64,000 nucleotides of DNA, taken from positions 682,001 to 746,000 of the forward strand of contig RSEE01000003.1 in the NCBI GenBank assembly GCA_003971905.1, given 5' to 3'. Below the pieces are notes generated by a model. The model saw only the letters and a program-made list of their open reading frames with translations. It was not told the DNA's origin and did no database searches. Positions 2,029-56,926 of this stretch are shown in pieces. Origin of the DNA: Moniliella sp. 'wahieum'. Its lineage: Eukaryota. A program made the position numbers and the translations under genes. Position 1 is the first letter of the stretch. Each line of letters starts with the position of its first letter.

Positions 2029-2387
2029 GCTCAGGCTGCGGATTGGAACAGTCACTTGGACGTCACATTGCCTCTTTACTGTGATGTGTATAGCAGTCGG
2101 AGCCAAGTAGGAGATACAGGGAGGGAAGTCGTTGGTGCGCTAGCGAGGGAGAGGACAGTGGCGGCGCCCATAGCCCAAACAGGAGCAATTGGATCGAGGA
2201 CTCCTTTACTGTCAGATCTCAGATCTCACCGATCTCACCATTGACCTCAATCTCCATTGTTGCAGTTGCAATCCCGTCTAATCTATCCGAGCGCACAACC
2301 TTAATCGGCTTGTCAATTCACGCTCCAAGTGAAAGCGGAACCGCACATTAAGAGCTCACGGTGACCGCCACCATCTCCTCCACACCG

Positions 2388-3830
2388 ATGGGCGTGCACC
2401 CGACCGCCGAGCTGACACGCGCCATCGCCTACCTAGGCCACGTGGCGGCGGAGACGGTCGTGCTGTTGGCGCTAGCTGCTGGGGAGCGCCATGGCAGCAG
2501 AGGCGTTGTGTGGCGTCGTACTCGCTTTGTGTGCTCACTGCAGCACCAGAGCGCCCAGGTACGCGCCCTCCTGGCCTCGCACTTGCTCATGCTCTTCCCC
2601 CCTCCCCTATCCCCGCGCCACTCGGCACCTGAAGACCTTTCCTCGCCCGAGCTTCGCTCAGCTAAAAACCGAGGGCGTGCGGTCGTCATCCTCCCCTCGG
2701 CTGCCCCGAGCTCGCATACAGCCTCGCTGTCGCACTCGCCTCCAACGCTACAGGTGAGAAAGTGGGGTTGCCTGGTGGGCGAGGGGAAGGGCTGTTGCAG
2801 GGCCTAATGCAGCGCTTGTTTCCTCCGCCTCCATCGGGGATTACGTGCTTGTCTTGGTTCGGACCAAGAGGCGTTGGGGACGCTGATCCCCCGTTGGGCC
2901 CAGGCCAAGGCTCAGCACCACCGCTCCGAAACGACTCATACGCCTCGCCGTCAGTCCTGGGCATCGGGACGAGGCTTGGTTGGTGTGCCTGACTTACTCA
3001 AGGGGTGGCGGGTGGGAGAAACGTCGTCGCTCCGATCTTGCTCCCACACCACGTCTCCTTCCCTCTCCCCAAGCCCGGAACGCACTCGCATCGGACGCGT
3101 GATCCCCTTTCTTTGCCCCAGCGAGGGGGGGAAGGAAGAGTATGTTCAAAGTTTGGTTGGCGAGTACTGTTCCTCCAACACCTTGGTTCTCAACGGCGTC
3201 GTCCTCCTACCCCCAGCACACGATACGCAAATCCAAGTGGGCCAAAGCCTGGTTCGCACCTTCCATTCGCGGCTGGTGCAACTGCTACCACCCGGACACA
3301 AAGGTGCACGAGGTACAACCCAATTTACTTTAGTACGTTGACCCGATTGGCTGCATGGGACTAACACTTCTCCTGTTGTTGGCTTCAGATGAGGCGACGG
3401 CCCAGCCTCTTGTTGATCTGGTGGAGGAAACGACGATGCAGCTTAGAGAACATGGGCTATGCTTCTTGCTTCCGCGCACCACACCCTACACCCAGGACAG
3501 GAGATGATTATCCATCGTCTGAGCCAAGCTTTTGGAGCCTCCTGGGCTTTGGCCTGGGACTGGCCCACTTTCTTCAACAGGCATCGGAGTTGGTTCTCTG
3601 GCCACAGGGTCTTGTACGGCGGCCACTCCGTCTCGGCAGAAGAAACGGAGGAAGAGGAAGAGTATTCCACGACTCGGATTGGGGGGGCAAGCATACTATT
3701 CCCCACCGAACCCACAATGGGAGTAAATAAGTTGCTCTTGTACCTTGTCCGTGACGCCCTTTTCCGCCCTACCCCACGCGCCTCTTACTTTCTTGGTTGG
3801 GGCGCACGCTGGACCAGCCTGATGGCCTGA
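2388..3830 (+). CDS. Hypothetical protein, one intron, frameshifted
   Basis: Chain of overlapping + strand ORFs (2361..2807, 2491..2757, 2762..2992, 2874..3341, 3459..3830). Canonical intron GTACGT...GACTAAC...TTCAG at ~3333-3388. No family recognised; ends uncertain. Confidence 0.45.
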
Positions 3831-4678
3831 TGGCCTAGCGGCCTCGTGGCCTCGTGGTTCATGGTCTAGTGCCCGATAGTCTAATGTCCCTGACGCACCT
3901 CATTCCGACTCCTTGGCTCCTGTTCGTGCCTGGGTCGGACGGAAACGAAACAAATGATTTAGTTGAGCATGTTGGGATCGGTCCCTCCGCGATGGTTGGG
4001 GGGATACCCTCCCCGGCGATTACTTTGGTGCAGGGGCATTACGTTGCTTTGTGCAATTGGGCCTGGGGACAGTAGTCGAGGTAAGGCCAAGATAGTGGAA
4101 CGGTAGGGGGTAGGCAATGGGCCGTACATGTTTTACGTATGAACTGAACCTACTAGACTGAACGGACTGAACGGAGTAGTCTATGAGAAAAGGGTGCCAT
4201 ACTGAGGAAGATGAACTCGGTCGGGGGAGCACGGGATGCAAACGCATGGACCTTGCATGTATCAGACGTCAGTGCGTCAGATCAGCGCTCTTCGCAAAGC
4301 AACTCATACAAAACGCAAGGCCAACGGAAACATGAACGTGACGAATTATTGGAGTAACTAGTAGTAAAGCGTAAATCCTCCTGCCGTGAGACTACTTAGA
4401 ACTATAGATGCTCACTTAAAGCGAGTTCAAGCAGTTCAAGTGAACGCTTCACCTGAACTGGTAACTACAACTCTTGAAACCATGACATGCATGACAGCTA
4501 TAATGCCAGGGACATGGTGTACACCTTATAAGCCGAAGCAGCCAATACACGGAGTGGCAATGAAGCTTCATTCATAGCGGGGGAATGTCGAAAAGCACAG
4601 AAAAGTTGTGCAAAAGGGGAATTTAACGTGACAAGCACATATTGATAGGCAACAATAATATGAAACAAAGAGACTCGA

Positions 4679-6522
4679 TCAAGCGACCGAGCCCGGAGTA
4701 CTAGCGTCGAGAGTGCCAATGTTGGTTCCCTCGAGCTTCTTTTCAGCCATAGCCGCATCTTCTTCCGAGGGAGAGTGCCACTCGCCCGGCTCGGCAATGT
4801 TGCCTGTGTCCACGGCGCTCACGCATCTCCTTGTTGAACGTGGCCGACTTGAGCGTCGTCGTCTGCCGTACATCTCGTCCACCTCCTCAAGCGACAAGCC
4901 CGCCGTTTCGTACACGAAGAAGTAGACAAACACCATGCCACACAGAGTGGTAGCCATCCACACAAAGAATACCTTGGTTCCAATCCGCTCAACAATGTAC
5001 GGCGTCGAGGAGCCAGAGAGACATTGATCGCCCAGTTGGACGCCGCGCACAAGCTCATTCCCTTGGCACGGATGGCCAGGGGGAAAATCTCACCGCAGAC
5101 AACCCAGCGATCGGACCCCAGGTCGGGGCAAAGCCAGCACAAGAGACAGACAAAGGCAACCATAGCGTTCCGAGACGGCAGGTTGGTAATCGGCGTGCTG
5201 AGCGAGACCACAGCGACAATCAAATGGCACAACGCCATCCACGCAGCACCAGCCAGAAGCATACGACGCCGACCCACCTTGTCCACCAGAACAACCCGGG
5301 AATCGTGGCGACCACGTTGACGATAGCCGGGATCAGGGCAAAGACGAAAGGGTCCAAAGTGGGAATAGCCTGCGAGCCAAAGACAGTTCCATAGTACATA
5401 ATGTAGTTGATGCCGGTAAACTGTTGCCAGACTAAAAACGAAAAGAGACAGGTCAGGTCAGTATCCAACTCCATCAATGGGGTGGAAGCGTCTGGGAAAT
5501 CGTGTTGGGGGATAGTACGCACATTGGATGAAAATACCCGTCAACGTGCGCAGCAGGTACTTCCTGTTGCCCATCCGGAAGCAGTCAATGTAACCGTGAA
5601 TGCCGGGGGAAGTTTGGCCGAGCTCCTCTTCAGGTTGGACTTGATCTCGGCGTACTCCAGGTCGACCTCTTCACTGTCAGGAGCGACGGAATGCAGACGG
5701 CTGAGCGCTTGGCGCGCCTGTGCGTCCCGGCCGGAACGAACGAGCCAGCGGGGCGACTCGGGCATAAACAGAAGACCAGCAGAGAGTGCAATTGCCCATC
5801 CAAGCTGTATAGCAATCGGGACACGGTACTCGGCCGTGGTGTCGTGGTACCGACGTGCCCAGGTTGACACCCGACGCCAACAACAAACCAATAGTGATCG
5901 CCCACTGATAGGCGACGATTGCGCCACGAATCCAGCGCGGGGCAGTCTCCGACTGGTAGGTCGGGATGATGGTCGAGATGATACCCACGCCCACACCAGC
6001 CACAACACGTCCTCCGACAAACATACCAAGGTGGTGCTTCGGCGCGCCCGTCTGGGAGTGCCACGCCAAAGACAAAGATGAGATTGGCCAGGTGCACCGC
6101 GTTCTTGCGGCCAAAGTAGTCGCCAAAGGGTGCACCAACCAAGGCACCAACAAAGGTACCACAGACAAGAGCGAGGTGACCATCGACGTGGTCGAAGACC
6201 CGAGAGCATATTTACCGACCACTGCCGCTACCAGCTTGCCAGTGACCAAAGTCTTCCTTGAAGCGCCTGGTCCAGACCTGCACGATGTGACCCAACCAAC
6301 GTCTGGGGTCAGATATGGATCCTTGGAACACACAAGAGGCAGAAGAGAGGTTGGGGGACCCATGCCAGAGGGAGTACGTACCAGAAATGGTGCCGGTGTC
6401 GTAACCGTACAGAAGACCGCCCATGGACGCGGCAATGCCAATCAGAATGGCCGGCATGACTGCCGGATGCTCAGGTCGGCAGGCTTGTGAGCGGCGAGGC
6501 CGCCACCAGTAATGGCGGGCAT
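4679..6522 (-). CDS. MFS sugar porter, hexose transporter / Rco-3-like
   Basis: Motifs 'GGLLYGYDTGTISG', 'DYFGRK', 'YQSETAPRWIRG', 'PESPRWL', 'QQFTGINYIMYYG', 'DKVGRR', 'GEIFPLAIRAKG', 'YET-GLSLEEVDEMY'. Introns at 6278-6381 and 5432-5522. Several indels. Confidence 0.93.
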
Positions 6523-9500
6523 GATGGGAGAGGGTGTGAGGTGGTGAAGTTGAACGGGGAGAGGGGCTTGGAGAAGGCGACTGGAGGGGAAACGGCCCAG
6601 AGGTAGCTGGACGTGTTGGGGGAGGGGGGAGGGGAGGAAGAGATGAGATGAGACGAGGGGACGGGAATTGTCGACGGAGAAGGGCGTGAGGGGTTTTATA
6701 CCCGACGCTTTGCAGGCCCCAAAAACATGGCACATGGAAGTACCGTTGTGGGACGGGCGTCGGGGGAGTGTCCCCCAAGTCGTGGCAGTGGTGACTACTG
6801 ACCCCACCATGGCATTTCTTCAAGCCGCGCTGCTCTCGCTTCTGGGCGGCTGTAGAGGCTACGGTGGTGCCTGTCGCGGCAATAGACGGAAAGGCATGTG
6901 TGCCGCAGGCGTGGCGGGGCTTCTTGGCGGGGAGGCCCAGCCTGGGTCTCAGCAGGCGGCAGCTCTGAACGATCGACCGCTGGACGCCGGGCGAGGGGGA
7001 CGAGGCTAGGGGGGGGCACAGAGACACCAAACGCGGGGCGATGGATCGAGGGATGCAGGCCGCACACTACTGCCGCACAGCGCAGCAGGACGCCGAGACT
7101 AGACTAGTAGTGACTAGCGACATCCGTGACCTGCCTCTGGGGTGTGTGTGACGGCGGCAACCGGGGGTGTTTCGGTGGGAACAATGCAAATGGTGGTAAT
7201 GACTTATTGACTAGTGGCTAGTGATCAGCTTAACTGGCCAGTATACCAGCCAGTACCCTGCCAACTGGGGGGTGGTTGATGGTGTTGATGGTGCATGGGA
7301 TATGTGATGTAGGCTGGGCGAGCGTGGGCGTGATGTGTGATGTGGTGCCAGAGCCTTGTGTTCTCGCCGCGCGGGCCTTTGCGGATGTGATGTGTCTGAC
7401 ATGTCGCGTGCGCGGGGCCACTGGTAGGGACGAATAGCCACGGGGGGGGGGCCAGGCACTAGGCACTAGGCACTGTCCACTCCTCTCGGCCCCGACTGTC
7501 CCGGCTGCCTACGCGCCGAACCCAGACCGCGCCTTGGCGGCCGAGCTTGGTAGCCGGTAGAGCGACGGAGTCGATAGTCGATGTAGTCGATAGGGCAGCA
7601 CGCAGTGGCGCCGTGCGCCCTGAGACGGACGCGCTAGGCGCAAGCACCTGGGGGCCAGGCCCTGCCACGCCCGCGCCCTGCCAACACGCCCTGCCAACAC
7701 GCCCTATTCGGCTTACTTGCAGATTGGGCATTGGCACCTATGTGCACGCGGCCTTTAGTGCGTCTCACCAGCGTCCGCACCGCCTCCGCCCTGCGTCAGC
7801 CGCCCAGCGGTTCGTAAATGGAAACGTTAAACGTTAAACGTTAACCTACAGGCTCAAATGTCCGGTTGGTGGGGAAGGGGTGTGGATGCAGTGAGGCCGG
7901 TGTGGGGGAAGATCGAGACGAGTACTGATGTCCATGACCGGCCCCGATGGTGTCGAGATGCCGGCGCCCCAGGGCGGAGGCGGCGGAATTCATTCTATTC
8001 AGCACCCAAAGGCCTTTCGGTGGGGTGCGTTCTTGTGCAAGGCACGTCCTGGAGATATTCGATCATCGACCAGTATGCATACTCAGGTACGCAGGGATCA
8101 GTGCCCGGTGCTCAACGGCGTCGGCGCAGCACGGGGGCAGTGCGTGGAGCAGGAACAGCAGAGGCGCAACTCGGAAAGCTTAATGTGTGGCTGGCCATCG
8201 AGCGCATCATGATCATGTCACCATCATGCATCATGCATCTCTCTGCAAGCTCCGCCTTCGAGCGTTGCAGCAGCAGACTGTGGGCACCAGAAGACTGGAC
8301 CCAACGATGGCCGGGTAGCATTCCGCCGCGCTTGGGCCATGTCTCTTGTGCTGTGGCCCCCCCATGCAACCCATGGCTCCTGCCACGTCTCGTACGCGCA
8401 GCTCCACCATCTTGCTCCACAGAGGTCCCTGAAGCGATCAGGATGCACATGGGCTGCCTGTTGCACTCCAAGATATGATCCAAAGTGTTCCCTCTCCTCC
8501 CCAGCCGTGGTTGTGATGGTGTGTGGCCACATTTTCTGACACTACACATGTGATGGTAAAGGTTTTGCTGTCGCGCGGGGGGGGGGTTGCGCTTATAGTG
8601 TGTATACTTCCTATACTCTGTACTCACACAGTTCTCATGGGCAACACGCGTCGCAGGCTAGTCACTACTCACGTCTCTGTGCCCCCACACCCCCCAAACA
8701 GGGATGCTGCCCTGCCATCACATGCATCAGGGGGGCTTTATGCTGTGTTCTGTGTTCTCATGTGGATAGGAGAAAACCGCCCCGAAGTTCCCCGATAGTA
8801 TATACATCAAGTAGCCTGTCGACAACGAGACCTGGTCGACACGTCTCAAGTGTTACTAGTTACTCGTTACTAGCTACTGGCTACATTCTTTCTAGTGTCT
8901 TCAAGCTTCAGATCGAACAGACCATCTAGCATACTTAATTCCCCCTGTGTGACATGTGACATGCGACATGTGATTGTTGGTGTGGGGCGGGGGGGGTAAT
9001 AGGGGACACATAAAATGAGAGCTAGAATGTATACACATCTTAGATCTTAAGCCCACGCTCGCGTCGTGCTATATGTATGCTAGATGGCAACCTGGGGCAA
9101 CGCGGGCATATGTGTCTAGATTGCCGTTTGTGAGGTGCGCCACCTGGTACATCAGCCCGGGGCGGCGGGTCAAACGAGGATTATAATTGCCCAAGAAAAC
9201 CTTTGCAGCGACGGAACAGGCCGCGCGCAACCCCAGAACCATGGGGCCCTCGTCGACCCACAGTTTTGAACTATTATACTGTGTGGGGATGCCATGCGGG
9301 AGGGGAACGACGGGAGACACATAAGCTTGTGGCTGAGAGCTCCACAACTACTCAGAGAGAGAGGAGATGACATGATCGATATGAGATTGCATTGGCCGGG
9401 TTCCGCTCTGCTCCGCCCCTCCTCGTTGCGCTCTGGGTGCCTCCCCCTTGATTAAGATTGCATCTTCAAGCTTCAGGTTTCAAGCTTCATCCCCACCATT

Positions 9501-12322
9501 CTGCCCCTGCCTTGATCGCTCCCCACTTCTTGGTCACGGTCACCGGCCACTATAGTCACTACTGTGTAAATGGCCGATCAGAGCAATAAGTTCATCGTTT
9601 AATCCATCGTTCGCAGCGTCCCCTCTCGCGAAAAAATGACCTCCGCACTTACGGGAACGAGAACCACATTGTCCACCATAGCTGCCCCCCTCTGGTTTGC
9701 TGAGGTGTGGAGGGTCTCCCTAATAGGGGTATTACCATTACCAGCATCACCTGCATCACCTCCCTGAAGGTGTCTCTGCAATGGCCTAAGCCCTAAGTCA
9801 AAGCCCTAAGGCCTTTACGACCTAATATTAAATCTTACCAAGCTCTAAGCTTCTAATGTAAGCTCTATAAGGCCAAATCCCCCAACGTAAACTCTCTTCA
9901 TGTCGGAGCAGTTGAACTCCCCTTTAGTCCGTTCAACGTTTAACCTTTCGATACACTCAACTCCCACAGTGCAGAGCTAGCTGTGCGCATTGCGCTGTAA
10001 GACTGGTGATCGGTAACGGTAAACGGTAAACACTATGGAACGATTAGCAGCACGGGGTGAAGAAGAGAGAGCGGCTATTCTTCTCTATGCTACCTACTAT
10101 ACGTCGGGCCGTTTGGTGTACTTGCTGTTGGTGTATGTGACGTGGTAGAGTGTGATGCGGCCTGCGGGTTATGGTGTGGGGTTTCGATAATGTAGGGGGT
10201 ATCTCCAGAACGCACGTAACAGTGAGAGCATCGAGCACTTGGAGTAAGAGAGGTAAGACTCGTACTTCTCGGAGTAGTACTCTGCGCGGTATAGTAAAAA
10301 CAGGAAGGTCCTCATCAGCCGCCTGTGTACTCAGTTAAGTGCTCCAGTATCAGTCCTGCAGGTATTGGGCCAACTGTTGGCCATCTCACACAGGTGCGAG
10401 GCGCTTGGAGGCAAAGGTGTCGTCATACGCGTCGTGTTGACATGGTGAACAACACATGTGTGCACATACAGAAGCTGCATTGAATATTGAGATCTGAGAG
10501 CACTGACGATTGGTGACTTCAAGAGTACTGAGTATATACTGCGGGTGACATGGTGACATGTGACATGTGACGCTTTCGCGTGCGTGACGCGTGACGCGTC
10601 GCGGCCCTTGTGGGATCTGATGAATCTGATGCACAACAGGATCTGTTGGCCGCGATTGGTACGTTGTACGTCGTACGTCGTACGTCGTACGTTGAACGTT
10701 GGACGTTGGAGGCTGTTTGTGGCGACTATAACTCAGCGCTCGTACTCATTGTGGGCAACAGACGTGGCTGAAGCGGCGGGGCATGGGGACGTGGGACGGG
10801 CGGGGTGGGGGACGGCGTGTTTGTAGTTGGGGTGCTGGAGTTCCTACCTTCCTGGGAGGATGGGTGTGTGACATATGTGACAGGGTATACACTGTGGGGC
10901 GTGCGGCATGGGACGGGTGGCCGGTGACGCATGTCACCATGTCCCCGACTATCGATTATCGATCGATTTATCGATTAACTCGATTAACGTTTAACGTTAT
11001 TTAACCTCAATCTTACCGTTGCATGTACATTGAACTTTGAACCGGGTAACTAGTAAGTTGCCCCGCCAACGCGTCAGCGCGCACTACAGTAACTGAGCCG
11101 AGCAGGCCTGTACTACATACTGTGCCTGACAGGTATACCGGAGCTTTAGCGTCAACGCTGTCAGCCGTTACGAGACCCGATGATGTCTCTTCTTCTCCTT
11201 GTCTCTCAGAGACTCCAGCGCGAACGAGAGTCACAATTGAGTACTGAGTACTGACACCTCATTGATGTGGGGACGCGCTTGTTTTAAAAAGTCCGTTCAA
11301 CGAGTTCACATTCAATCGATCTATGACCTTAATGACCCGAACGGGTATCGGCCCTATGTATCCTTGGTTGCGAGAGCGGCCCTTTCTTGCCTGGGTATTT
11401 ATTTTCTGTTCTTCCCCACGCTTCGTCTCCGTGGGAAGGAGGAGCGTCGCTGGTCCGCCACTAGGTGGTCCATTCGGTCCTTTGTTCACCGGCGCCCAGG
11501 AACGGTCTAGTTTTTGTGGCGACTTTACTGCCCTCCACGCAGTTCCTGATCTATAGTAATCTCCCCGTTCCCACATCTGGGATGTCTTTCACAAAAGACG
11601 TGTCACACGTCACTACGGCCCCAAAGCCCCTGTGCCTACGCAGCCTTTTGCTATCCCGGCCACCACCTGGCTATTGCTGATGTGCCCCAGAGGCCTCATG
11701 GCGATGCAGTGAAGCAGAGGGCGGTCGTGGCATCTATAGTGCGCTTGTGATGGGTATAATACCGTGGAAGGCTGCAGCCGAGAGCCACGGACGATTGGAA
11801 GAAGTTTTTTCCTGTTCCTTTACAGGAGTTGGCTGGTGCATTCATATCTCTTATACAGAAGAGATCAAGGCTGGGACAAGGAAACGCTGTGCCTAGAAAA
11901 CAATTGCCAACCAGGAGTACGAAGAATCCGCACGATATCCAGCTAATAATGCAGTGATGGCGCCTATAGCAGGCCTATACGTTGTAGAGGAGGCTGACAT
12001 GGTACACTGTGGAAGGATAGAGACCTGAGAGGGATCTCATCTAACAACCATACAACTTCAAAGAAGAACCAGAAAATGTGTGTATAATATACGCGTAATA
12101 TAAAACCTTTGAACCCAGATGTATGTCGGATGCCAAGGGATAACGGGCTTGAAGAAACCGCCGATTGTGGGGAGGATACAACAACGAGAAGTGGAAGGAA
12201 CAAGCTGTACGAGATAGACATGAGATGATAACAGAAGCAGAAAACAGTAAACAGTAAACATGAAACAAAACGAATCGAAAAGCTGTATAACAGAGGTCCA
12301 ATGAGGTGGACCACAAACGCTT

Positions 12323-13895: not shown

Positions 13896-16800
13896 GGTGG
13901 TGGCGAAGATGCTGGGTAGCAGAGAGAGATACGGATCGCAGAGGTGGGGGGGTGGAGGAGGTAAAAAACAGATGCGTGCCTTCTCCTCGCCTATGATATT
14001 AATGGGTTTTGCATGGCAGGGGGTGTGGGGGTCGTACTGACCGATCCCCTTCCCGCGGCCGCTGACTCGCATCTGCTTATGCGCGCAGGTGCTATAGAGT
14101 TGGCTGCTGGGGCCTGCTATGCTCCCAGCGCTGCCCGAGTGCTCCAGCGTCTGTGGTCAGCAGCCTCCAGCGCACAGTGGGTACTACCACCCTAACTACC
14201 AACGCCTGCTTTGGCCTGTGGCCTGCGGCCTAGGCCGCGTCTGGTCTCTGTAGCCAGACGCTTCTTCGGGGTGCGTTGGGGGTGTTCATCGCTATCCTCA
14301 CCGGTCAGTTTCCTTTCGACCCGGGTACTGCGTGGGGCTGCTGCATCCTACTCCACTGTGATGACGTGTGCACCCTTAACTGTTCGCCTGTGCGTGTGCA
14401 CTTTGCGCTTGCAGGCCGCAAGCGGGCACACTCCGCCATCCTCCAGCCAGATGTCTTCCCCCGACCGTACGCTGGCACACACCCCGCATCCCATCGTTTT
14501 TTTTAAAGCACACTTGTTTCGTTCCCCGACGGCCGTCTGCAATTCTGAAAGTATGAAGCCCTGGCGCACTGCGCTCCTGTGCCTGTGTGCGGTGGAGTGT
14601 GCTTTGACTAGTGGCTGGGCACGGAGCAATCAAGCTTCAAGCTTCAAGCGTGGTTTTTGCCCCACGCCAAAAAGTCACAGCCGGCCTGCCTCGCCCTTTA
14701 GGTCGTCTAGGCCCAATCCTTTGCCACCCAGGCTGTCTGCCACACGCGCCTCCCACAAAAGCACCTCCCAGTGCAAGCCAGTGGCCTGGGGCACCTATCC
14801 GTCTATCCGTCTGTGCGCTCTCAGCACGCCTGGCAACAGACATCTGCGGTTGTATGACCACAATTAAGCAGGTTTCCCCCTACTTTTTTCCTATCTTGCA
14901 AAATGTGACAAAAAAGCAATACACAAGCTCTCCGTCTTGCGCACTCTCCTTTTCTCGTTTCCCCGCGTTGGGACGGCCCTTGCTCTTCCTACTAAGCGCA
15001 ATCTTGTTGGATCAAGAGGCAACTGCACCACCTCTCTCCACGCACAGCGGGTCCACCTCGCCGTCTCTCCCTGCAACGTCTTCAGCCCTAAACCCTTCGC
15101 CGGCCTTCTCCTTATGTTGACTAATACCTTGGGTCTTTCAATTGATCGATTCTCCCGTCCCGTCCATCATCCATCATTCATCCGCACAGCCCACCCTGGG
15201 CAGTACCCCTCCCCGCTCTCCCGCCCGGTTCCGTCTTCCTTCGTATTTGCTACCCTCCTTCTCTGGACCATCTACTTCGTCTCGGGTAACCTTATTATTC
15301 CGTTAGTGCATTCAAGTTATTAAGCTTTAAGCCTTTTATTAGGAGTGAGTATACATATGCCACACTCGGCTTGCGTAGCTCTTGCCCTATCCTAACTCGG
15401 GATCGGTGGGGTGTAACATGTAAACAAGTGGCAAAAAAGACCCTTGAATGTGACGCACGATGTGGTCGACATACTAGTGCGGGGGCAGCATCAGAGAAGG
15501 AAAGGACTGGTACTCCTGTGTATGCCAGGTGCACAGTTCGACGAGCGAAAAAATCCTATATGTTGTCGATTCGATACGCGCATCGGTGGGGTGTGCTGTG
15601 CATATCTTATTGTGCGCATAATATACTACTAGTAACTACCGTTCGGCGTCCAAAGAGGCCATCAGATCTAGTGTCTTAAAAACCCTGCGCCCTGGTAGCC
15701 TTTTTGGGCCTCCCTGCACTGTTGAAACCCTTCGTTTTTCTTAGGATGATGAGGTCGGTTTAACGTTTGTAGGTAAAGCGCTGAGCGTTCCGTTATCCCA
15801 GCCTTACGCTTCGTACATGGTATTATGAAGACCGAAGCAGTCTATTATGTCCAAAGGGCACTTTCGCCCTCTCGTTCTTGTCTGGACAGAGAGGAACGAG
15901 TGCGGGAACACGTTGCCAGAGAGAAGCTGTGCGGAAAAATAGTAATGGGTCTCCTCTCCAAGCAGGAACCTTCTTTTGTCAGAAACACGCTCAAAAGTCT
16001 TGACACTACATTTGCGCACACATAAAATCTTGATTCCCATTCCGGGGAACGAACCCAGCGATGAAATTAAAGCTGCTGCAAGGATCCCTTGCTCTATCAA
16101 GCCTTGTGGGCAAAGGGGGAGACGGTATAGCTTGAGTGCGGAAAAAATAGTCCATGGTCGTGCGGACAAGGATAGACTATGACAGAGAGAGGTTCATGCC
16201 TATATATCACAGGAGAGAATATAGTTGAACGTTGATGTCGCCTCTCACAAACTAGCTTCTCGGCACAAAAGAGATGTACGTTGAGCACGTTGAGCGGGGC
16301 CTTCTCTCTGTTATACCGCGGGGACGATATACGACTGTGTACGTGGAGTTTGGATGGGCAGAGTGGAATGAGGGTAAGGTTCAATGTTGGAATGACCTAT
16401 CGAGCCACCGGGTGGCTCGTGCTTTGGCTAACGTCCCTTCAGTTCCTCCTCAGGGCTAGGTGTTCCGTTGTCTTGTTCTCTCTCCTGTTTTCCTTGTTGA
16501 TACACAGCTCAGCCCCTGGTGGCGACTTCTGCTTGATGTTCCTTTGTAGGTGTTGCGGGTTGGCTTAGACTACACACCACCACCACCAGTGTGATTGCAC
16601 CACCCTCGAAAACCATCCGGACCCCAGGTCTCATCAGGGACGTACATATTAGGCCAAGGCGTTTGATTCCGACCATCGGCTTGATCTTTACCCCTTGCCC
16701 CCGTATAGTGACCTCCGAAGCCTCCACGTACTTATACCTCATTCGGCCTACTCGAACCTCTCTGTTTCTTCCAGGTGTGGCGCGAGGCTTGGAGTTTTGA

Positions 16801-17796
16801 GTCCTCAACCACCACCATCATGGATAACATTACTATCCATTTCCAGAAGGTCACCACCCACAATTCCTTGGGTTCCTCCGGCCGGTCTTACAAGAGGGGT
16901 GTGGATCGCCAGGTTATAGGTGTGCGGCGGAGGCAGGGCTTCTCCTCTTGACCTCGGCTCTGTCCCAGTCGCATATTGGATTTTGAAGTGGTCTGGTCTT
17001 CGCCCGGCTGATGCTTGCATGGGCGTCTACAGAGAGAAGCTCTCTCGAGCAAGTCTGGGTCCGTAGCCAAAAAGGAATCCGTTGTCCAGCGCAGGGTGAT
17101 GGGCATGGAAAGACGTGTTGTGTGGCTCAAACAGAACCAAGAGAGAATACGCGCCACCGAGACGGTGCTATAAGGCGGATGCATCGGATGGCAGGGTTGG
17201 GGCGGCCCTGGGCTATGTCATGATGGTGACGAGATGGCTGGGTTGGCCGGAGCGTGCAAGTGGTGCTACTCCAGGTGGTTGTAGGCGGCCAGGCGGAGCG
17301 ACGGGTGACGAGGTCACGTGGCCATGTTTGCGAGCACGCAGGGCGCGCACGGGCCATAGACTGCCCCCTGGCTCTGCTGCGGCGCGGCAGCCGCTGCACG
17401 GGGGGGTGGGAGGGTGCAGCGTGCAGCGCTCCGGCTGAGCGCGCCGGCCTCGCGTTGGCCCACTGCTTGTCTGCGCAGCCACGTGGGAGCACAGGCGCTG
17501 GGCGAGCACGATGTGACGTCAGTGACCACGCGGGGCGGGCGGTGCAGACGCACAGAGCGAGTGTGGCGCGCGTGCACATCCCCTGCGGCTGCACACGGGT
17601 GGCGTGCATGCGCCTGGCGCTGGGCGCGGGGGCAGTGGCGGCGGGTCTGGCAGTGCACTGCCTGCCTGCGCATGCGGTGTGCGGCGTGCGGCGTGAGGGT
17701 GACGGGTGAGCGTGACTGAACGCGGCCGGTGCTGGGGCCGCTCGGAAGCGCTCGCTTTGTCTCTGGCTCACCACCACCGTCGCTGGCTTTGCCGAG

Positions 17797-20700
17797 ATGG
17801 TGAATCTGCCGCACCACGCCTCCCGCCCCAGTGGGGACGCCGCAGCCCCCGCTGCGCCTGTTCCCGCCCAGCCGCCCGTGGCCGACGCCAGCGCTCCCCC
17901 CGCTGGCCATGCGCCTCCCCCCGAGCCGCCTGCGCCCCACTTCGATCCCAAGGCTGCCCCGGCCGCCAAGGCCGCCGAGCAGGCCCAGTCCGCCATCCGC
18001 CAGGGCCTGATGCAGGACCCTCAGGCCGGCTTCGACAAGCCTCTGGTACGTCGCCCTTTCCTTCTTCTCTGCTCTCCGCGTTGGTCCCCCCGCTCACGCT
18101 CCTCCTCTCCTTGCCCTGTCAGCCCCAGCCCACCGAAGAAGCTGTCCAGGCCGCCAAGCACCCCATCTCGAGTGGCGCTGCCAACCCCACCGCCACGTAC
18201 GATGACCAGGGCCGCCTCGTCGCTCCTCCCGGCATGGCCGTCGAGGGCGAGGCCGAGGCACCTGCCCCCCAGGCCCCGTCCGCCTCGGCCCAGAGCACCC
18301 AGCACAAGGAACTCGCCACCACCGTTGCTTCGGGCGCCAAGGAGGGCCACATGGCCACCGTCTTTCGTATCCGCGACCACATTGCCCACAGCCACTTGGG
18401 CAACTTTCTTGCCAATGGTTCGGTCATTCTCGGTGCCTCGTTCTTTGTCTGGCTCTTGACCAAGATCCGCCTTGGCGTGGCGGGCATGGTGATTGTTGGC
18501 ATGTTTGTCATCGCAGCGTACAACCGTGCTCTGGAACGTGTTGCAGTGCGCTACAAGGACGACCAGGAACGCATCATTATCCGCAAAAAGGCTCTCGAGG
18601 ACGTGTCCGATGGCGATGGGGAGAAGATGATGTGGCTCAACAACTTCCTTGCTCGCTTCTGGCCCATCTACATGCCCGCTCTTTCTGCCCAGGTCATCCA
18701 GATCGCCGATGGCATCCTGGTCCAAAACTGCCCTTCGTTCCTCGATGCCATCCGTCTGACCCAGTTTACTCTCGGTTCCAAGGCGCCCCAGTTCACCTAT
18801 GTCCGCACCTTCCCGCACACTGACGAGGACGTCATCATGACCGAATGGAAGTTCAACTACACCCCCGAGGACACGAGCGACATGACGGTCAAGCAGGCCA
18901 AGGAAAAAATCGATCCTAAAGTCGAGCTGAGCGTGCGCATTGGCGCCGGATTGGCTGGTGCCACGTTCCCGATCCTTGTGCAGAACATGCAATTTTCGGG
19001 CACCCTTCGCGTTCAGTTTAAGCTCATCTCCAACTTCCCCAACGTTCAGACAGTTGGCATCAGCTTTATGGAACCGCCCAAGTTTGACTATGTACTCAAG
19101 CCTGTTGGGGAAGCAAGCTTGGTTTTGATGTCGGCAACATTCCAGGCCTCAATGAGTTTATTCAAGGTCAAGTGCATGCCAACCTGGGACCCATGATGTA
19201 TTCCCCCAACGTGTTTACGGTTAACTTGGAAGAATTGCTTGCCGGAAATCTGATGGACACGGCCATTGGTGTCCTGCAAGTCTCGATCTACTCGGCCAAG
19301 GACGTGCAAGGTGTTAAATTTGGGGGTGGCACACCGGACCCTTACGTCTCGCTCACCCTCAACGACAAGCCTGATATATTGGAGAAGACTTCGGTTAAAC
19401 AGAGTACCAGCAACCCGAATTGGCGCGAAACCAAATTTGTGCTGATCAACTCCCTCGCTGGTCTGCTCACGCTCAACACACTGGATTACAATGACGTGCG
19501 CGCCGACAACCCATTGGGGACAACCACGTTTGACCTTGCTGAGCTAGCGCAGAACCCGGAACAAGATGGACTGTCGGATCCGATCATCCTCAATGGCAAG
19601 GCGCGTGGAACGCTGCAGTATGGAATTTCGTACTTCCCCTGCTCAAGCCAGAGAAGACGCCAGATGGAACGGAGCTCCCGCTTCCTGAGACGCGGACGGG
19701 TGTGCTGGCGCTAACGGTGCACTCGGCGAAAAACTTGGGAAGCAAGCAACTGAATTCGAAGGCCCGGATTCTACTCAATGGCAAGCAAGTCTTTCGAACG
19801 TGTTCAAAAAGTCTGACGCACCAAACTGGGAATTCCAACTGCCGCTGCTCGTCACTCAACGCGAGAAGGCGGTGGTGGGACTGGAGATTGTGGATGACAA
19901 TGACAAGCCTGTGGGACAGCTGGCGGTCAAGCTGGACGATATGCTGGAGGCTGCGGCGCATGGACAGGATTGGTTCCCGCTCCTGACGCAAAGCGGTGGG
20001 TCTTCGCGCATGCGTGTATCCATCTCGGCCGTTTGGAAGCCTGTCCGGATGGCTGGCGGAGTGAACTCTGGTTCGGGCTACACCCCTTCGATTGGCACGT
20101 TGCGCGTCACGCTCGGCAAAGGCTCTGGTTTGGCAGGTAAACCCTTGCCGTTTGTGGAGCTGCGTAACAAGGGCCTCGTTTCCGATCGCAGCAAGGTGCT
20201 TCTCCAGACGTCTACACCGGACTTTAAGGCCCAGCCACTGTATGCCCCGGTTCATTCGCTCCAGGAACGGGTGATGGTGGAGTTGATGGACTATCAGCCG
20301 AATGGCAAGCATCGGTTCTTGGGCAAGTACGAGTTGACGGTGAATAAGTTTGCGCGGGAGGAGAGTGAGAACGCACACAAGTCTCAAACCGACCCTGGCC
20401 CTATCGCTCAACGGGAAAGAACACAATTAAAGCCCAGGTGGGCCTGGGGGGCAAGAAGACCGGCACGCTTGAGCTGGAGGTGGAGTTCCTACCTGCTGTG
20501 CATTTGCGTGACGCTGTGTTCGACAATGGTGAACCGGAAGCGGTGGAGAAGGCCAAAGAGCTGGATCAACCTTCTTCCAAGGAAAGCCTGCCTGCCATTC
20601 CCGCTGAATCCACCAAGGAGACGACTGAGACGACTGAGACGACTGCGGACAAGGCTCAGCCGACGCCGACCCAAAAGCCCGAGCCTGAGGAGGAGAAGCC

Positions 20701-22315: not shown

Positions 22316-22324
<9 letters not shown>

Positions 22325-22346
<22 letters not shown>

Positions 22347-22370
22347 TTTTGTTTTTTTTTTTTTTTTTTT
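22325..22370 (+). repeat. Poly(T) tract interrupted by a single G
   Basis: Directly visible homopolymer run downstream of the tricalbin stop codon. Confidence 0.95.
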
Positions 22371-22611: not shown

Positions 22612-23388
22612 GGAGTGGTACGATGGAGGGAGGTGAAATCTACCGAGGGATTAATGCGAGGCAAAGGCAAAGGCAAAGGCGGGGTTTATAGTTGCTTTAT
22701 GTCGACCCTCATTTTGTTGGTTTGAAGGTAAGGTCCAGATCATGTGATCTGAGCGGCTGAGGCTCGGCCTGGCTGGGCACGGCGGTGGGTGGTTAGTGGT
22801 TAGTTCTGACGTCGATCTGATCTCCACGTTCCACCAGCTTAGGCTTACTTGCGGCTGGGCGCAGGGAAACTTCAATGTTCAATGTCAATGTCAAATGTCC
22901 AACTGCATCGGCCGGCTACCTCAGGCCCCGCGCCCGAGTCGGCCGGGGACAGGGCTGGTGCGTGGGGCCCAGCTCGCATCTTCGGCATTTCCCAGGTACC
23001 CCGTGCAGTGCCTGTGTGCGCAAACAACGCACCACACTCCCCGCGTGCCAGCCAGAGCGCTTGCCCGCTGCCCGGCACATCGGCCGGCATGCAGCAAGAC
23101 AGCGGGGGGCGGCGGCAGCGCTGGGGCCGAGGCCCAGCCTGCGCTCCTCCCGCACCGCCGGGTGGGTGCGCGCACGCGGCAGCCGCCCACATGCCCTCCT
23201 GCCCCCAGCTCAGCAGCACCCCGACAAGCGGCAGACGGGCAGTGTGACGTAGCGTCCCCGTTTCCTCAGCCCGTAGACGTTAGACGGTGACCAACCCTCC
23301 GTCCGCACCTGTCCCGGCCACCCAAAGCCCACCCGCCCGTCCAGCATCCAGCCTACACCACCACCACCCTACCCCCTTTCTCTTCGCC

Positions 23389-27177: not shown

Positions 27178-27231
27178 GGCCCTTTGGCCTTTGGCCTTTG
27201 GCCTTTGGCCTTTGGCCTTGGGCCTTGGGCC
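27178..27231 (+). repeat. 7-bp tandem repeat (GGCCTTT)n
   Basis: Directly visible, about 7 units. Confidence 0.9.
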
Positions 27232-46120: not shown

Positions 46121-47070
46121 GGCAGTTGGTGCGCTGGGCTTAGAGGGTGGTGCGCATCGTGGCCAGGCGAGGGTCGGAGGGACAGACGAGCAGGAGGCAG
46201 GACAGGATTGTTTTGGTTTTAACGAGCGGCTGCGTTTCTCTGCGTCCAGAAAATATTTTTTTCTGCCCAGCGCCTCCGTGCCTTCCCTCACCGGTCACCG
46301 GTCACCCCTTACCTAAGGCACCGCCATTGCAATGCTGAAACTTTGCCTGCTGGGCCATGCCTGGACCAACGCGGGAGGGTTGCACGTTCCCTGTCCCAAC
46401 ACCAACACCACTCCCACTCCAAGCGCGGCATCGCGTCGGACGATCTCTGCCGCATGGTGGTGCTGCCCTCGGTACCAGAACTATCATCCGCACCGCCATC
46501 ACCATCCATCCCAGTTGGCCACACGAACCTCCTCGTTGGTATGGGCCATCCACGCACCGTTTTCGACCACAACAGCCTCTCTGCTGCTGTATCCACCGAG
46601 CCTATAGTGCACGCGGTTGAGGCAGTCAGCGGTGAGAAGCTGCTATGACGGTGTGGGTAGTGGAGGCGGTAGTGACCGAAGTGGGGGATATAGGTTCCAG
46701 GAAACGTTGTTGCGAGTTCTGTCGAATTGCAGCTGAATTGCAGCTGGGGGGTGCCATTAACGTTTAACGTTTAACCATCATTGCGCTGATGAGATCGATG
46801 AGACACAGGCCAACCGTAGAATTGGAGATTAACTTTTGTGGGCGGGGAAGCATGTAGTCAGGAAGCGCTAATAAGCTACCCCTCCATGATTTCGTCAACA
46901 AGTTGCTAAGCTGCATGTTTCGCATGCTCGAAACTCCTAACTAGTGCGGTGCTAACACCATCCTATAATACAACACAGCTGTTTTGGTACACATGCGATC
47001 TTTTCCAGGGCATTTCCCATGCTTTCAAGAAGATTCAATCGCCAATCTCTCACCCTCGGTGTACTTCGTA

Positions 47071-47295: not shown

Positions 47296-47939
47296 TCGTA
47301 TATCCTCTCTCCTCTTAGGCTTTATGTCTTACGACCGAAGGTACTGAAGAGCTTTTATGAGCACAAAAAGTAGGCCATAGCGGACCCATAGCTACCAGTA
47401 GCTCTCCCAAATATATCGTCTTCGTTGCCTGGTCTGCGACTTGTGACTCGAACCGCTAGCTCTATTAGGTTCATCACATTAGTAATAGACGTTGGGTCCA
47501 GGCGGCCTGACCCAACCAGAAGATGCTGAAGATTGCTTGCTTGACCTTGGACCTTAGATCTTAAGCTTGTGGGAGGCGAACAAGGCAGGGAAGGAAGTGG
47601 AGGTGAAGCAATCCGGCGAAGGCAGCCTGGAGGCGCAACAAGGAGGGGCGGAACAGAGGCGGAACGGGGCCGTGGCGCACAAGGCTCTTAAATCGACCGA
47701 ACATCGATCTCAAGCTTCAAGGAGCCACAGCATGCAGCAGAGCTGTCTCTCTCTTGGACAAGAGTGGGCGTTTGAAATTGGGCACCACCTTCGAGCTTCC
47801 AATTTCCGCGTCAAGCCCTGAAAAGCCTCAGGCTTTGCATGCTTTGCAGGCTTTGCAGGCTTTGCAGGCTTAGCCACTGCTTCGCGCGGCTTCCAGAGAT
47901 TCTTCCCAACCTCGCCGAAGATAAGATGGTCCCGCGTGA

Positions 47940-49290
47940 GCCTGACCGGTGACCGTCCATGGCCACCGATCATCGATCATCGACGATGATTTCGATCGAA
48001 CACGAGCGCACGAGCTGCGCCATCGTCTTAGCTCTAGCTCTTACTGGATGCAGAGGTTCAGGAGCAAGTGCAACACAAGCAACACCCAGCCCAGTCTTGG
48101 ATTCCCTGCCGATCGCGCTTTTGTCCCACTCTCGCCCCCCACCGCCACCGGCCACCGGCCACCGCCCCACCCCAGCCCCACGTCTCCGAGTCCCCGAGTC
48201 CTCCAGTCCTCCGAAAGCTGCCAGTCCAGTCGAGTCTACGTAGCGCGTATAGACCCCGTCGCAGACGATCGATGATCGATGATCGATCATGGCAACTGAC
48301 ACGCGACACGCGACATGTGACATGCAACGTGCAAGAAGGGGCACGTGACGTGTGACATGTGACCGATGATCGATGATCGATCATGTGATCGGGGGCCATG
48401 CACCATGTGCTTGCACCGCACCCTGCTTTAAAATGGCCGCGGCCGCTCCAACCTTCCAGGCCGCTCCTGCTCCTCCGCTCACGCTCTCGAGCAGCGCTCA
48501 GCCGGAGGGCGCACGCTCAGGCGCTCAGGCTGCTCTCAGATCAGGCTGTGCCTTCAGTCCAGCTGGAGACTGCTGGCGACGGCCGCACGCCTGTGGCTGT
48601 GACATTGTGAGCGCGCTGAGCCCAAGCTCAGCTCTTTCTCAACTCTGAGAAGATCTGAGATCTGAAATCTGAGATCTGAGATAATACAGGCGGCACGGGG
48701 CCAGTGGTGGTTAGGCCTTAGGGCTCGTCGCAGGCTGTCGCCACCGCCACGACAGTTCAATTCACCCACATGTGCGGGGTTGGTCTCGATGGGCGGAGGA
48801 AGGTCGGAGGAGAGTGTAGTGCGGTGCGATCCAAGCGGAGGAAGCTTCACTTGAAGCTTGAAGGTGACACAAGGCGATGCAAAAGCCGATACAAAAGGCA
48901 AGATGCACTGCCCGCGCTCACCGCACTGCCCGCTCGCAGCGCTCTGAGTACTATGGATATAAGAATCCTGGGTACCTAGCTAACTGGTAAAACTGCGCCC
49001 TGGTGCTCCATCGGGGTGCAGGAGGGTGCAGGCGGATGCAGGCGGCAGGACACACGATGCGGTGAGATCTGAGATGTAGGACATTTGACGTGTGACATGT
49101 GACAGGTGACGTGTGACAGGTGGCGTATGTGACGTGTGACATGTGACGTGTGAGATCTGAGATACGATGTGTCGCTGTCGTGCAATGGATGGGATCCAAT
49201 ATCTGTGCACCATGAGACCATCGATCATGCACCATGAGATTCATGAGATTCATGACGCTGAGTACTACTGAGTTACTGAGTACTGATTGG
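47940..49290. repeat. Dense cluster of 7-bp-period TGA-N4 quasi-palindromic arrays
   Basis: Examples: 48346-48383 TGA cgtg TGA catg TGA ccga TGA tcga TGA tcga TCA; ~48650-48683 (TGAGATC)n; 49086-49167. Confidence 0.85.
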
Positions 49291-54868: not shown

Positions 54869-55714
54869 GTCCCCTCTGCTGCTGCACCGCAGCTCTTGTT
54901 GGACCCATGCATTCATGCATCGTGCCAATGCAAAACGAGGTTGTCACCCGCTGATGATCGTCTAGGCCAATCATATGAGTGGATTACTACGATGCGATAT
55001 CTTTTTCCTGTTTAGGTAGAACCTATTGGTTTTTAGGGCAAAGGGTGTGTGTGCGGCGTGCCAAAAAGAAGGATCAAGTTGATTGCCATGCGTGGAAGAG
55101 TGTAGCACAGTGGGAGAAGCCTCCACAACAATGACCAGATTGATCGAATTGTCAAAATAGGATCGGCTTTACTGAAGGCTTGGAGTCCCAGCGCCTCTAA
55201 TTCCCCCTCTTTGTGGCCCACCACATGGCCAGGTGCAGCGTCAAGAAAGCCCGATCGCTGGAGTCTTCCAATTTGGGGCTTGACATCTGGTGTCCGCAGG
55301 CCAGCAGGTACATCTGCTTATTAGTCACTGTTTGAGTCCCCAGTACGCCCGGCCTGTATTCCTGGTCTCTAGCAGAAACTGGATGCGCTGGCCACCACCA
55401 ACCGTGTCCTAAGTACGTCAACTCACACTTGCCAGATTGTGCGCCTTGGTATTTTGCCCTCACAACCCACCTCGGGTCTGATCCAAAGTTCATCAGTTTG
55501 GGGTGTATATCCACATTGCTTCTGACGTTTGCCACTATGGGGAGACCATGTTTACGTGCAAGACCATTGCACTGGTGCTACTGATGTCGGAGCTTTTGTA
55601 GAAGCTGTCCATATTTCCTCCAGTGCATGTCGCTGTGCGTGTTGACAAAATGGGAACCAACTATGAAGTTCTTAAGATGGGCCATTGCACTCGATCTGTC
55701 GCAAACAACAATCA

Positions 55715-55812
55715 GGCAACGTGCCCGAGTGGTTAAGGGGATTGATTCGAACTCCTGTTTAATGACTATCAATTAGGCTTTGCCTGCACAGGTTCGAGTC
55801 CTGTCGTTGTCG
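55715..55812 (+). tRNA. tRNA-Ser(CGA) with 16-nt intron
   Basis: GGCAACG-TG-CCC-GAGTGGTTAA-GGG-G-ATTGA-TT CGA A[55752-55767]A-TCAAT, long variable arm AGGCTTTGCCT, then ACAGG-TTCGAGT-CCTGT-CGTTGTC-G, followed by a T-run. Confidence 0.95.
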
Positions 55813-56926
55813 AATTTTTTCTGCTTATCCTGTTTGTGGGGCCGAAGCTCCCTGACAGTGGCCTAGTGCGATTGGGGCTCTAGGGCTGTGACTACGTGGA
55901 GTTTGCGGCTGGACAGAAGGTTTGGAAAACCAAACGAGACGGCGCTCGTGTCTTGGCTCTCTTCCTTCACCTTTTCGTCTTTCGCCCTTGTCCCCTTCGG
56001 TCCTCCCTTCGTCCTTTGTTAGTGGCTGACGCTTGTGGCTTCACTCCTCAAAGGATTGTTCTGTTCCCTTCATTTCCTCCATAGTGCCTCGTCGGGTCCT
56101 GGGCCCTTTGGCCCACATCAATCCACCGACTTCCAAGGCCTCACCAGGTCTTTGACCGGTTTTTACATACGTTAACCCCGTTCCCACTAAAGGGAATGGT
56201 GTGGGGATAAGACTGCCGAAAGAGACGCGCGTAGAAGGGCCCCTGCCGGTGGGCGTTTTACTGGCTACCGCGGTTACCGGTTACCGGTTATGATGCCTAG
56301 GCTTCCAGGCCTTTAGCTTTATTGAAGCTTGAAGCATGGGTGCATGATGATCGATGATTGAGCGCCTAGTACCTTTATAGTGCTAGCCACGGGAGAGCTC
56401 GCTGAGCGTGACTCAGTTTCCGTAGGGTCCTTCCGTATGTAATGCTATGATGCCGGTGGGGTTACGCGTTGCGGTTACTGGACGACTGCGGGATTGGCAG
56501 GGGCTGAGCCACTGTCCCCTTTATTACCGCGTTACGCGTTTTGCGCGTTAAGGTTGCCCGCCTGGTTGTTGAATGTACGACCAGGGCTTTGCAACGTTTC
56601 TGTTTTACGGCCCCTTGGGCTGGCTGGTGTTATTTCCGCACATCGCCCACACGGAACAGCCACATTTATGCACATCATGCTGTTCTCGGCTCTGCTTCTA
56701 CCCAACGCATCGGTTCCTTCCCTTCCCTGTCCTTGGTATAAGGCCTAAGGCTTAGGCTTAAGATCTAACATCTAACATCTAAAGGGTTTGTACAACGGCG
56801 TTAAGTTCCCGGCATCGCTCTTTTCAAGCTTCATTGATCACCCATGACCATCCGTCGTCATTTCGCCTGTAGACCGATTAAAACCCAAGAGACCTGAATA
56901 GGGGTTACCCAACTACCACCATCGCA

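Follow-up and report, generated by a model that had tools for sequence, protein, structure and literature searches.

What process could leave, in the noncoding DNA of a fungus, dozens of short tandem arrays that share one period and one symmetry but have no common sequence? The question is raised by a 64-kb stretch of contig RSEE01000003.1 from Moniliella sp. 'wahieum' (GenBank assembly GCA_003971905.1, positions 682,001 to 746,000 of the forward strand), which we call the window and in whose own numbering all positions are given; the results below come from this one window and from control sequences outside it. An original prediction, made from the letters of the window, had singled out 12 intergenic arrays in which a TGA-, TCA-, or TAA-like triplet recurs every 7 bp around interchangeable 4-bp palindromes, and all 12 were found, either just where it had placed them or a few bases away. 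As we describe here, the arrays follow a strict unit rule, and they look like the scar of an unusual copying error rather than a set of protein docking sites.

We first established that the period itself is exceptional. Perfect arrays were defined as tracts of at least 2p + 3 bases at period p, and 20 dinucleotide shuffles served as the background. By this measure, the window contains 31 perfect period-7 arrays, against a mean of 0.1 in the shuffles and against 9, 12, 5, and 5 perfect arrays at periods 5, 6, 8, and 9, respectively. Tandem Repeats Finder (TRF) gave the same picture: 61 of its 183 rows over the window are of period 7, and the 1,483 bases that they cover exceed the coverage of every other period. 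Merging of these rows yielded 59 arrays of head-to-tail copies (2.1 to 10.3 per array by TRF). In the DNA outside long open reading frames (ORFs), self-match at lag 7 rises to 0.2915 from about 0.26 at adjacent lags, with smaller peaks at lags 14 and 21; within long ORFs, the codon period alone is visible. Both the excess over neighboring periods and the intergenic autocorrelation peaks at 7, 14, and 21 had been anticipated in the original prediction. When the class consisting of TNA plus a 4-bp palindrome (1,861 bases) was masked, the perfect period-7 arrays dropped from 31 to 14, close to the 12 of period 6 and the 8 of period 5. The period-7 signal is therefore essentially that of one sequence class, and a general preference of the window for period 7 can largely be rejected.

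The unit of this class is 5'-TNA-3' followed by a 4-bp palindrome or, equivalently, a 6-bp palindrome of the form A-NNNN-T with one free base. A 6-bp palindrome lies within the unit in 26 of the 59 merged arrays, and in all 26 it is of the A....T type, whereas 10.6% of the window's own 7-mers hold any 6-bp palindrome and 3.1% hold one of the A....T type (binomial P = 6 × 10−24 for the A....T excess). We also counted 10-mers composed of a triplet, a 4-bp palindrome, and the identical triplet, taking the expectation for TNA from 30 shuffles. There are 77 such 10-mers with TNA, versus 2.3 to 2.4 expected and a shuffle maximum of 5; TGA and TCA account for 57 of them (1.7 expected) and TAA and TTA for 20 (0.43 expected). 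By either count, the palindromic 4-mers are enriched, as had been supposed. The other symmetric triplets occur at chance (ANT, 2 versus 1.8 expected; CNG, 5 versus 6.4; GNC, 5 versus 6.5), and nonpalindromic 4-mers between TNA triplets show a small excess (59 versus 37). The cores, on the other hand, are almost unrestricted, with 15 of the 16 possible 4-bp palindromes in use at similar frequencies. In the 33 heptamer arrays that lack a 6-bp palindrome, TNA is present in 11 when counted by eye, where about 30% would be expected. The same design recurs at period 9, with TGA or TCA, a 6-bp palindrome, and the same triplet again in five 12-mers (at 10869, 26179, 33941, 45800, and 48608) versus 0.6 expected. 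The rule is therefore "TNA plus palindrome," with no fixed 7-bp ruler. We considered a hexamer palindrome duplicated around one base as the elementary unit and rejected it: of the 66 tracts in which exactly six bases match, not one is a 13-mer of this kind, and many are arrays with one variable position.

Some minor classes were observed beside the TNA units. GCA (or TGC) combined with a 4-bp palindrome forms a secondary class with 14 occurrences versus 3.1 expected (maximum of 6 in 60 shuffles), for example, at 7456 to 7472, 23087, 26746, 47730, and 48324; the three-copy AGGCACT array at 7454 to 7474 is a member of it. CCA or TGG with a 4-bp palindrome shows a similar enrichment (12 versus 3.1 expected).

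The arrays are short and are built by direct repetition. Chains in which N is the same throughout number 64 (76 when N may differ). The TNA triplet occurs twice in 52 of the 64, three times in 11, and four times in 1, and most arrays hold fewer than two full units. The free base N in adjacent units is identical in 77 cases, complementary in 11, and otherwise different in 4. Thus, an almost symmetric unit is repeated directly, and its orientation is flipped now and then. Where a tract contains three TNA triplets, its two cores share one palindrome in 13 triples and are unlike palindromes in 3; this, together with the constancy of N, indicates that arrays grow by the copying of an existing unit. 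Beyond the ends of the arrays, the flanks match the periodic extension at 53 to 67% for two bases and reach the background by about 10, and unit pairs are in phase 24 times at a distance of 7 and 8 times at 14 but hardly ever farther apart. Decay of a single long array into the present short ones was therefore rejected. Adjacent chains within 300 bp of each other have different cores in 32 of 36 cases. The stop-bearing triplet is on the plus strand in 34 chains and on the minus strand in 30, and chains with the same orientation of N show mild clustering along the window (24 runs versus 32.8 in permutations; P = 0.017).

The placement and decay of the units provide further contextual information. 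Only 1 of the 64 chains overlaps a Pfam-supported ORF, although such ORFs make up 26% of the window, and this sole case falls within the opening codons of a stop-to-stop frame, ahead of the domain; the absence of arrays from conserved coding sequence, as originally noted, is thus upheld. Such exclusion is expected of 7-bp insertions and deletions, which shift the frame. Outside the coding sequence, arrays occur upstream of genes as well as downstream and may point either way relative to them, without any consistent relation in the window between the TGA strand and the adjacent genes, and they are dense in long intergenic regions (e.g., 46.2 to 49.7 kb and 7.1 to 12.3 kb). Apart from the arrays themselves, we found no dispersed repeats in the 64 kb, and the flanks of the arrays are unique sequence. 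Adjacent in-phase units with unlike cores pair a palindrome with a nonpalindrome in 26 cases and two different palindromes in 3. Single substitutions, typically CATG to CGTG or CAGG, separate 11 of these 26 pairs, and variants with two substitutions keep the palindrome in one of eight cases, which is the chance rate. No compensatory maintenance of the palindrome was seen among the in-phase variant units. As variants break the palindrome at a neutral rate, it is a property of the origin or multiplication of the unit and is not maintained by later selection.

The individual arrays illustrate these features. Those with the stop-bearing triplet on the plus strand include TAA-ACGT at 7822 to 7844 (3.3 copies, perfect); TGA-CATG at 8948 to 8973 (3.7 copies, one unit with a T-to-C variant) and again at 10545 to 10571 (3.7 copies); TGA-CGCG at 10582 to 10599 (2.6 copies, perfect); and TGA-GTAC at 11238 to 11254 (2.4 copies, perfect, with TGA at both ends). 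On the same strand, a variant array outside the A....T type, at 10659 to 10708, has 7.1 copies of GTACGTY leading into TGA-ACGT-like units, and the tract at 29779 to 29819 starts with two copies of TGA-CCGG (29779 to 29797) and continues in phase with TGA-ACGT units. Further plus-strand arrays are TGA-TCGA at 48267 to 48289 (3 copies, with the final triplet flipped to TCA); TGA-CGTG and TGA-CATG units followed in phase by 2.6 copies of TGA-TCGA at 48345 to 48383; TGA-GATC at 48651 to 48682 (4.6 copies, one of them a TGA-AATC variant); TGA-GTAC units with insertions and deletions at 49258 to 49286; and TAA-GGCC-TAA, TAA-GATC-TAA, and then 2.9 copies of TAA-CATC at 56739 to 56782. The longest tract (49063 to 49160, plus strand) runs from TGA-GATC through about 10 TGA-CATG, TGA-CGTG, and TGA-CAGG units back to TGA-GATC, mostly in one phase. 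The minus-strand arrays comprise TCA-GATC at 2212 to 2228 (2.4 copies, perfect, with TGA read on the minus strand); TCA-AGCT at 9464 to 9489 (3.7 copies, 78% matches) and at 14630 to 14649 (2.9 copies, perfect); TTA-TCGA and TTA-ACGT units (10968 to 10993) among pieces of period 8 to 12 at 10951 to 10998; two copies of TCA-GATC continued in phase by TCA-CGCG-TCA at 26296 to 26321; TCA-TCGA at 35643 to 35662 (2.9 copies), which forms the first codons of a Mon2-like frame, upstream of its first domain; TCA-CCGG at 46288 to 46306 and TTA-ACGT at 46757 to 46775 (2.7 copies each, both perfect); TCA-TCGA at 47967 to 47983 (2.4 copies), opposite in orientation to the arrays at 48267 and 48364; and TTA-CCGG at 56271 to 56290 (2.9 copies, perfect). 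The TCGA-core array at 47967 to 47983 and those at 48269 to 48285 and 48364 to 48379 are thus opposed, 285 and 381 bp apart, within a 3.5-kb stretch that has no Pfam-supported ORF; this was the only opposed set of arrays seen in an inverted-repeat scan of the window.

To place the window and obtain control sequences, we used its UDP-glucose pyrophosphorylase gene (UGP1; 28118 to 29419). The best named matches of UGP1 are those of Tilletiaria anomala (82% identity) and of Tilletia indica and Sporisorium scitamineum (81%), in line with the original guess of a smut relative. Given these closest named relatives, the window is nuclear DNA from a member of the Ustilaginomycotina that is not close to any named protein set. 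The eukaryotic controls were 79 UGP1-seeded metagenome loci (235 kb), mostly of 1.5 to 3 kb, with five of at least 10 kb. A 21-kb fungal contig whose UGP1 is 78% identical has no period-7 arrays and none of the TNA-palindrome 10-mers, and four more distant eukaryotic contigs of 11 to 21 kb have 0 to 2 of these 10-mers, as shuffles predict. Pooled, the 79 loci have 25 such 10-mers, mostly AT rich, which amounts to 6.8 per 64 kb versus 77 in the window, and in none of them is the array pattern present; the locus closest by identity is a 1.9-kb Tilletia-like contig with almost no flanks. From these sequences, the array class appears to be specific to the lineage.

Heptamer arrays as such are not unusual in prokaryotes. 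Tandem TGAGATC in three or more copies was recovered from, at the least, >121 prokaryotic contigs, with many Pyrinomonadaceae and Planctomycetota metagenome-assembled genomes among the matches listed; some of these contigs carry two arrays 100 to 450 bp apart. In a bacterial control of 650 kb around such matches, together with two viral-contig matches, period 7 is again the commonest (281 rows). However, of the 141 period-7 arrays with other units in this control, 16 contain a 6-bp palindrome, no more than chance would give, and in just 6 is it of the A....T type. Hence, abundant heptamer arrays do not by themselves yield the fungal TNA rule, and that rule is not a by-product of heptamer abundance. 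It had been argued from the window's letters that ordinary slippage would not favor one period and one symmetry; the restriction of the excess almost wholly to one class, along with the chance-level palindromy of the bacterial heptamers, speaks for that argument.

Pairing of bases at freely varying positions points to base pairing rather than to reading by a protein, and a free base that stays the same from unit to unit speaks for direct copying. Slippage with a self-paired loop is the simplest process giving both. We therefore tentatively favor, with a confidence that falls a little short of even, the view that the arrays are neutral products of a slippage-type gain of 7-bp units promoted by self-pairing of the slipped unit. 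The idea that self-paired loops and flaps escape mismatch repair and flap cleavage comes from work in yeast. Under this proposal, direct misalignment of a nascent strand or an Okazaki flap would add 7-bp units, and the gain would be strongly favored whenever the looped-out unit can pair with itself. A single unit could form the smallest possible hairpin, with a 2-bp stem and a 3-base loop, and the strand of two units could fold into a 5-bp stem capped by the TNA loop; self-pairing would lock such a loop or flap in its slipped position and make it a poor target for the enzymes of loop repair or flap cleavage. Later, ordinary point substitutions would erode the arrays, and contraction would shorten them to stubs of 10 to 13 bp. 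Like the slippage step itself, some property of repair or replication in this lineage that permits hairpin-assisted slippage is part of what we infer. When 10 TNA-type arrays were folded with DNA parameters, 8 gave a 5-bp stem with a TNA loop and 2 gave a 6-bp stem with a larger loop, at predicted energies of −1.6 to −4.2 kcal/mol. The original prediction had named fold-back or template-switch synthesis as one possible source. The self-complementarity on which that suggestion drew is real, but pure fold-back copying predicts a complementary free base in adjacent units and is disfavored by the 77 identical versus 11 complementary cases, in which direct duplication dominates.

Several observations weigh against hairpin-assisted slippage. 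The predicted hairpins are weak, and most of their z-scores relative to shuffles are unremarkable. In model arrays of 20 bases, the mean minimum free energy is −2.42 kcal/mol for TNA, −2.45 for ANT, −3.65 for CNG, and −4.05 for GNC. Stability thus fails to explain the TNA rule, because the last three triplets are predicted to form equally or more stable hairpins and yet occur at chance; we rejected it as the cause of the rule. The perfect tract lengths cluster at 12 to 13 and 19 to 20 bp; modulo 7, the length is 5 or 6 in 35 of the 64 chains and 0, 1, or 2 in 12. As a clean 7-bp duplication predicts the latter values, the birth step is not a simple duplication. Tracts end at the TNA edge in 52 of 128 cases and two to three bases into the core in 48. 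Moreover, hairpin-forming short repeats in eukaryotic genomes are in general reported to be less frequent and shorter (Murat et al. 2020; PMC7441554). The enrichment seen here runs against this trend, although the shortness of the arrays agrees with it. Finally, specificity this sharp would more typically be expected of an enzyme than of a purely physical bias, and slippage leaves the requirement for T-N-A without an explanation. It is possible that a loop geometry allowed by 5'-T...A-3' alone underlies the rule. Orientation matters in small DNA loops, although we did not find such a rule in the literature searched; nor did we find there any report of a special stability of TNA loops, which the folding parameters do not capture.

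The specificity for T-N-A leads to a different kind of explanation, namely, that a lineage-specific symmetric (dimeric) cutter at 5'-TNA-3', such as a transposase of the PIF/Harbinger superfamily or another nuclease, has left scars, with each event giving a duplicated TNA around a short palindromic filler and with repeated events or slippage then building the arrays. A direct repeat of TNA that keeps its middle base around a 4- or 6-bp palindrome has the layout of a cut-and-paste footprint. The recognition of T-N-A without preference for N, and without ANT, CNG, or GNC, resembles that of a symmetric protein. Tract ends that coincide exactly with the TNA edge (52 of 128) and tract lengths that do not fit a clean 7-bp duplication are also accounted for, and basidiomycetes carry PHIS-superfamily transposons with 3-bp TWA or C|TNA|G target duplications (PMC4482050). 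However, remnants of element ends should be few in kind, whereas 15 of the 16 palindromes serve as cores. The terminal inverted repeats begin with A or G in PIF and with GG in NuwaII, according to the same source, and there is no preference for the cores with an initial G that a C|TNA|G target would require. Despite 64 supposed scars, the 64 kb have no resident element and no inverted arm pair flanked by TNA. Excision in the PIF/Harbinger superfamily was, moreover, reported as precise in 109 of 110 events (PMC2836001), and the predominance of the same core in triples (13 versus 3) needs copying, not independent visits. On balance, we consider such scars unlikely, while giving them real weight, also in the form of a nontransposon nuclease that acts at TNA. 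Stated more broadly, the lineage might have an undescribed sequence-specific DNA transaction that writes TNA-bounded palindromic units, of 7 bp and sometimes of 9 bp, across its noncoding DNA, a proposition that we view with comparable doubt; candidates for its agent are a symmetric nuclease, an enzyme descended from a transposase, and a step in replication or repair that processes hairpins at 5'-TNA-3' loops.

Selection on the arrays offers another set of explanations, in which a protein, be it a promoter factor or a chromatin organizer, binds 7-bp-spaced TNA or the hairpins or cruciforms. The confinement of the arrays to intergenic DNA, their density in the long intergenic regions, the invariance of T and A amid an otherwise variable unit, and the mild clustering of orientation would all suit such a role. 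Yet apart from this T and A, the arrays share no core sequence; 52 of the 64 chains have two triplets only; units fall out of phase beyond about 14 bp; the palindrome is broken in variant units as often as neutrality predicts; the arrays lie on either side of genes in either orientation; they are absent from the other fungi sampled; and sites 7 bp apart face different sides of the helix. Function of this kind thus seems to us quite improbable, and the cooperatively binding protein with a 7-bp footprint that had originally been proposed gains no support from 15 of 16 cores in use, mostly fewer than two full units, a phase that ends at about 14 bp, and palindromes broken 26 times versus 3. Selection could conceivably act on the triplets as stop codons, because each TNA unit has TGA or TAA on one strand (TAG-type units being rare) and three units 7 bases apart would halt stray transcripts in all frames. 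The closing of three frames within 21 bp, as had been pointed out, does hold for the 12 chains with three or more triplets, but not for the other 52; the stop strand (34 plus, 30 minus) shows no consistent relation to adjacent genes; and the palindromic core would be needless. We accordingly give this idea almost no credence. An assembly or sequencing artifact is likewise very unlikely, inasmuch as the arrays keep out of coding sequence (of the 64 chains, 1 touches the Pfam-supported ORFs that make up 26% of the window), include natural-looking transition variants, and are embedded in unique flanking sequence.

The Pfam-matched reading frames around the arrays are ordinary eukaryotic genes. 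Besides UGP1, they encode a class I tRNA synthetase (783 to 1931), a sugar transporter in several exons on the minus strand (4682 to 6441), a tricalbin (17703 to 22129), an aspartyl protease (23277 to 25061), the above-mentioned Mon2-like protein (from 35637), the ribosomal proteins S1/S3Ae and S17, a glyoxalase II, and an alpha/beta hydrolase. Other repeats are interspersed with these genes. The longest in the window is nonpalindromic and lies downstream of the aspartyl protease gene at 25536 to 25665, where about 16 copies of the 8-bp unit ATGTCCAG grade into ATGCCTAG/ATGCCCAG. A run of about 55 T's with few interruptions directly follows the tricalbin frame (22316 to 22370), and a 33-bp unit is present three times at 61241 to 61372 with 71 to 80% identity, possibly as an 11-residue coding repeat. 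Longer nonpalindromic arrays are formed by CCTTTGG (9.6 copies; 27181 to 27247) and CAGGCTTTG (4.8 copies; 47829 to 47871), from which it follows that ordinary slippage of other units also acts in the same intergenic regions.

Arrays of TNA-palindrome heptamers apparently have not been described before. A full-text literature search, with most subscription journals outside its reach, found no such repeats described in any eukaryote, and no paper was found for the heptamer runs that the original prediction had ascribed to Ustilago maydis. Surveys of fungal microsatellites usually end at hexamers, and because microsatellite surveys usually stop at 6-base units, a rule-bound heptamer class would be missed by them. 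Its rule, which is about 30-fold enriched while other symmetric triplets remain at chance, provides a testable handle on small slipped-DNA hairpins that escape repair or on a novel enzyme. If the arrays vary in 7-bp steps, they would supply dense and easily typed markers for this fungal group and would continually give rise to small changes in promoters and untranslated regions. Should a TNA-specific DNA transaction exist, it would constitute a new endogenous mutational signature, and a comparison of genomes that have the arrays with genomes that lack them could reveal its enzyme.

How, then, do the arrays compare with known systems? Models for the expansion of hairpin-forming short tandem repeats (STRs) invoke slipped hairpins or flaps that resist processing. 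The eukaryotic STRs of this kind, such as CAG/CTG (Murat et al. 2020; PMC7441554), resemble the fungal arrays in being tandem, in having a self-pairing strand with regular mismatches, and in being short in the genome. The fungal arrays differ in having a unit of 7 bases, where the usual surveys cover 1 to 6, with a strict TNA and any 4-bp palindrome, and in forming a class that is about 30-fold enriched rather than depleted, with arrays rarely longer than three units. The "palindromic microsatellites" of Fusarium mitochondria (PMC7218506) are different, consisting of opposed A and T runs. As a whole, the fungal arrays are hairpin-capable microsatellites whose rule is strict enough to suggest a cause beyond those now recognized.

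At the level of the single unit, the closest counterpart is the DNA mini-hairpin. The sequence d(GCGAAGC) is a seven-base mini-hairpin, and a second one, d(GCGCAGC), is an established stable 7-base DNA hairpin with a 3-base loop (PMC3201870). Such a heptamer (two bases, a 3-base loop, and the two complementary bases) is an exact rotation of the fungal unit, and GCA with a 4-bp palindrome is the minor class described above. The known stable mini-hairpins have G-N-A loops closed by C-G, whereas the fungal loop is T-N-A with any closing pair.

Transposon footprints have a comparable layout. In footprints of the Tc1/mariner type, a direct repeat of the target surrounds a small palindrome. TNA is a known target of one superfamily of cut-and-paste transposons, PHIS, with its TWA or TNA target duplications (PMC4482050). 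In the fungal arrays, by contrast, the cores are of nearly all kinds, the window has no elements, and the units are copied in tandem, while excision by PIF/Harbinger elements is described as precise (PMC2836001).

The dominance of the period, finally, recalls bacteria. Heptamer repeats were reportedly described in bacteria by Mrazek et al. in 2007, and the cyanobacterial short tandemly repeated repetitive (STRR) sequences are said to be of the same sort. In Xanthomonas and Nostoc, the heptanucleotide repeats treated by Rehm et al. (2015; PMC4692102) are like the fungal arrays in that period 7 is dominant in intergenic DNA and many units occur per genome. The bacterial arrays are longer, however, and their self-complementarity stems from inverted pairs of arrays and not from the unit, whereas the fungal unit is itself symmetric (26 of 59 arrays). 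Bacterial heptamer repeats, long unexplained, thus have a eukaryotic counterpart in the fungal arrays, which follow a rule of their own.

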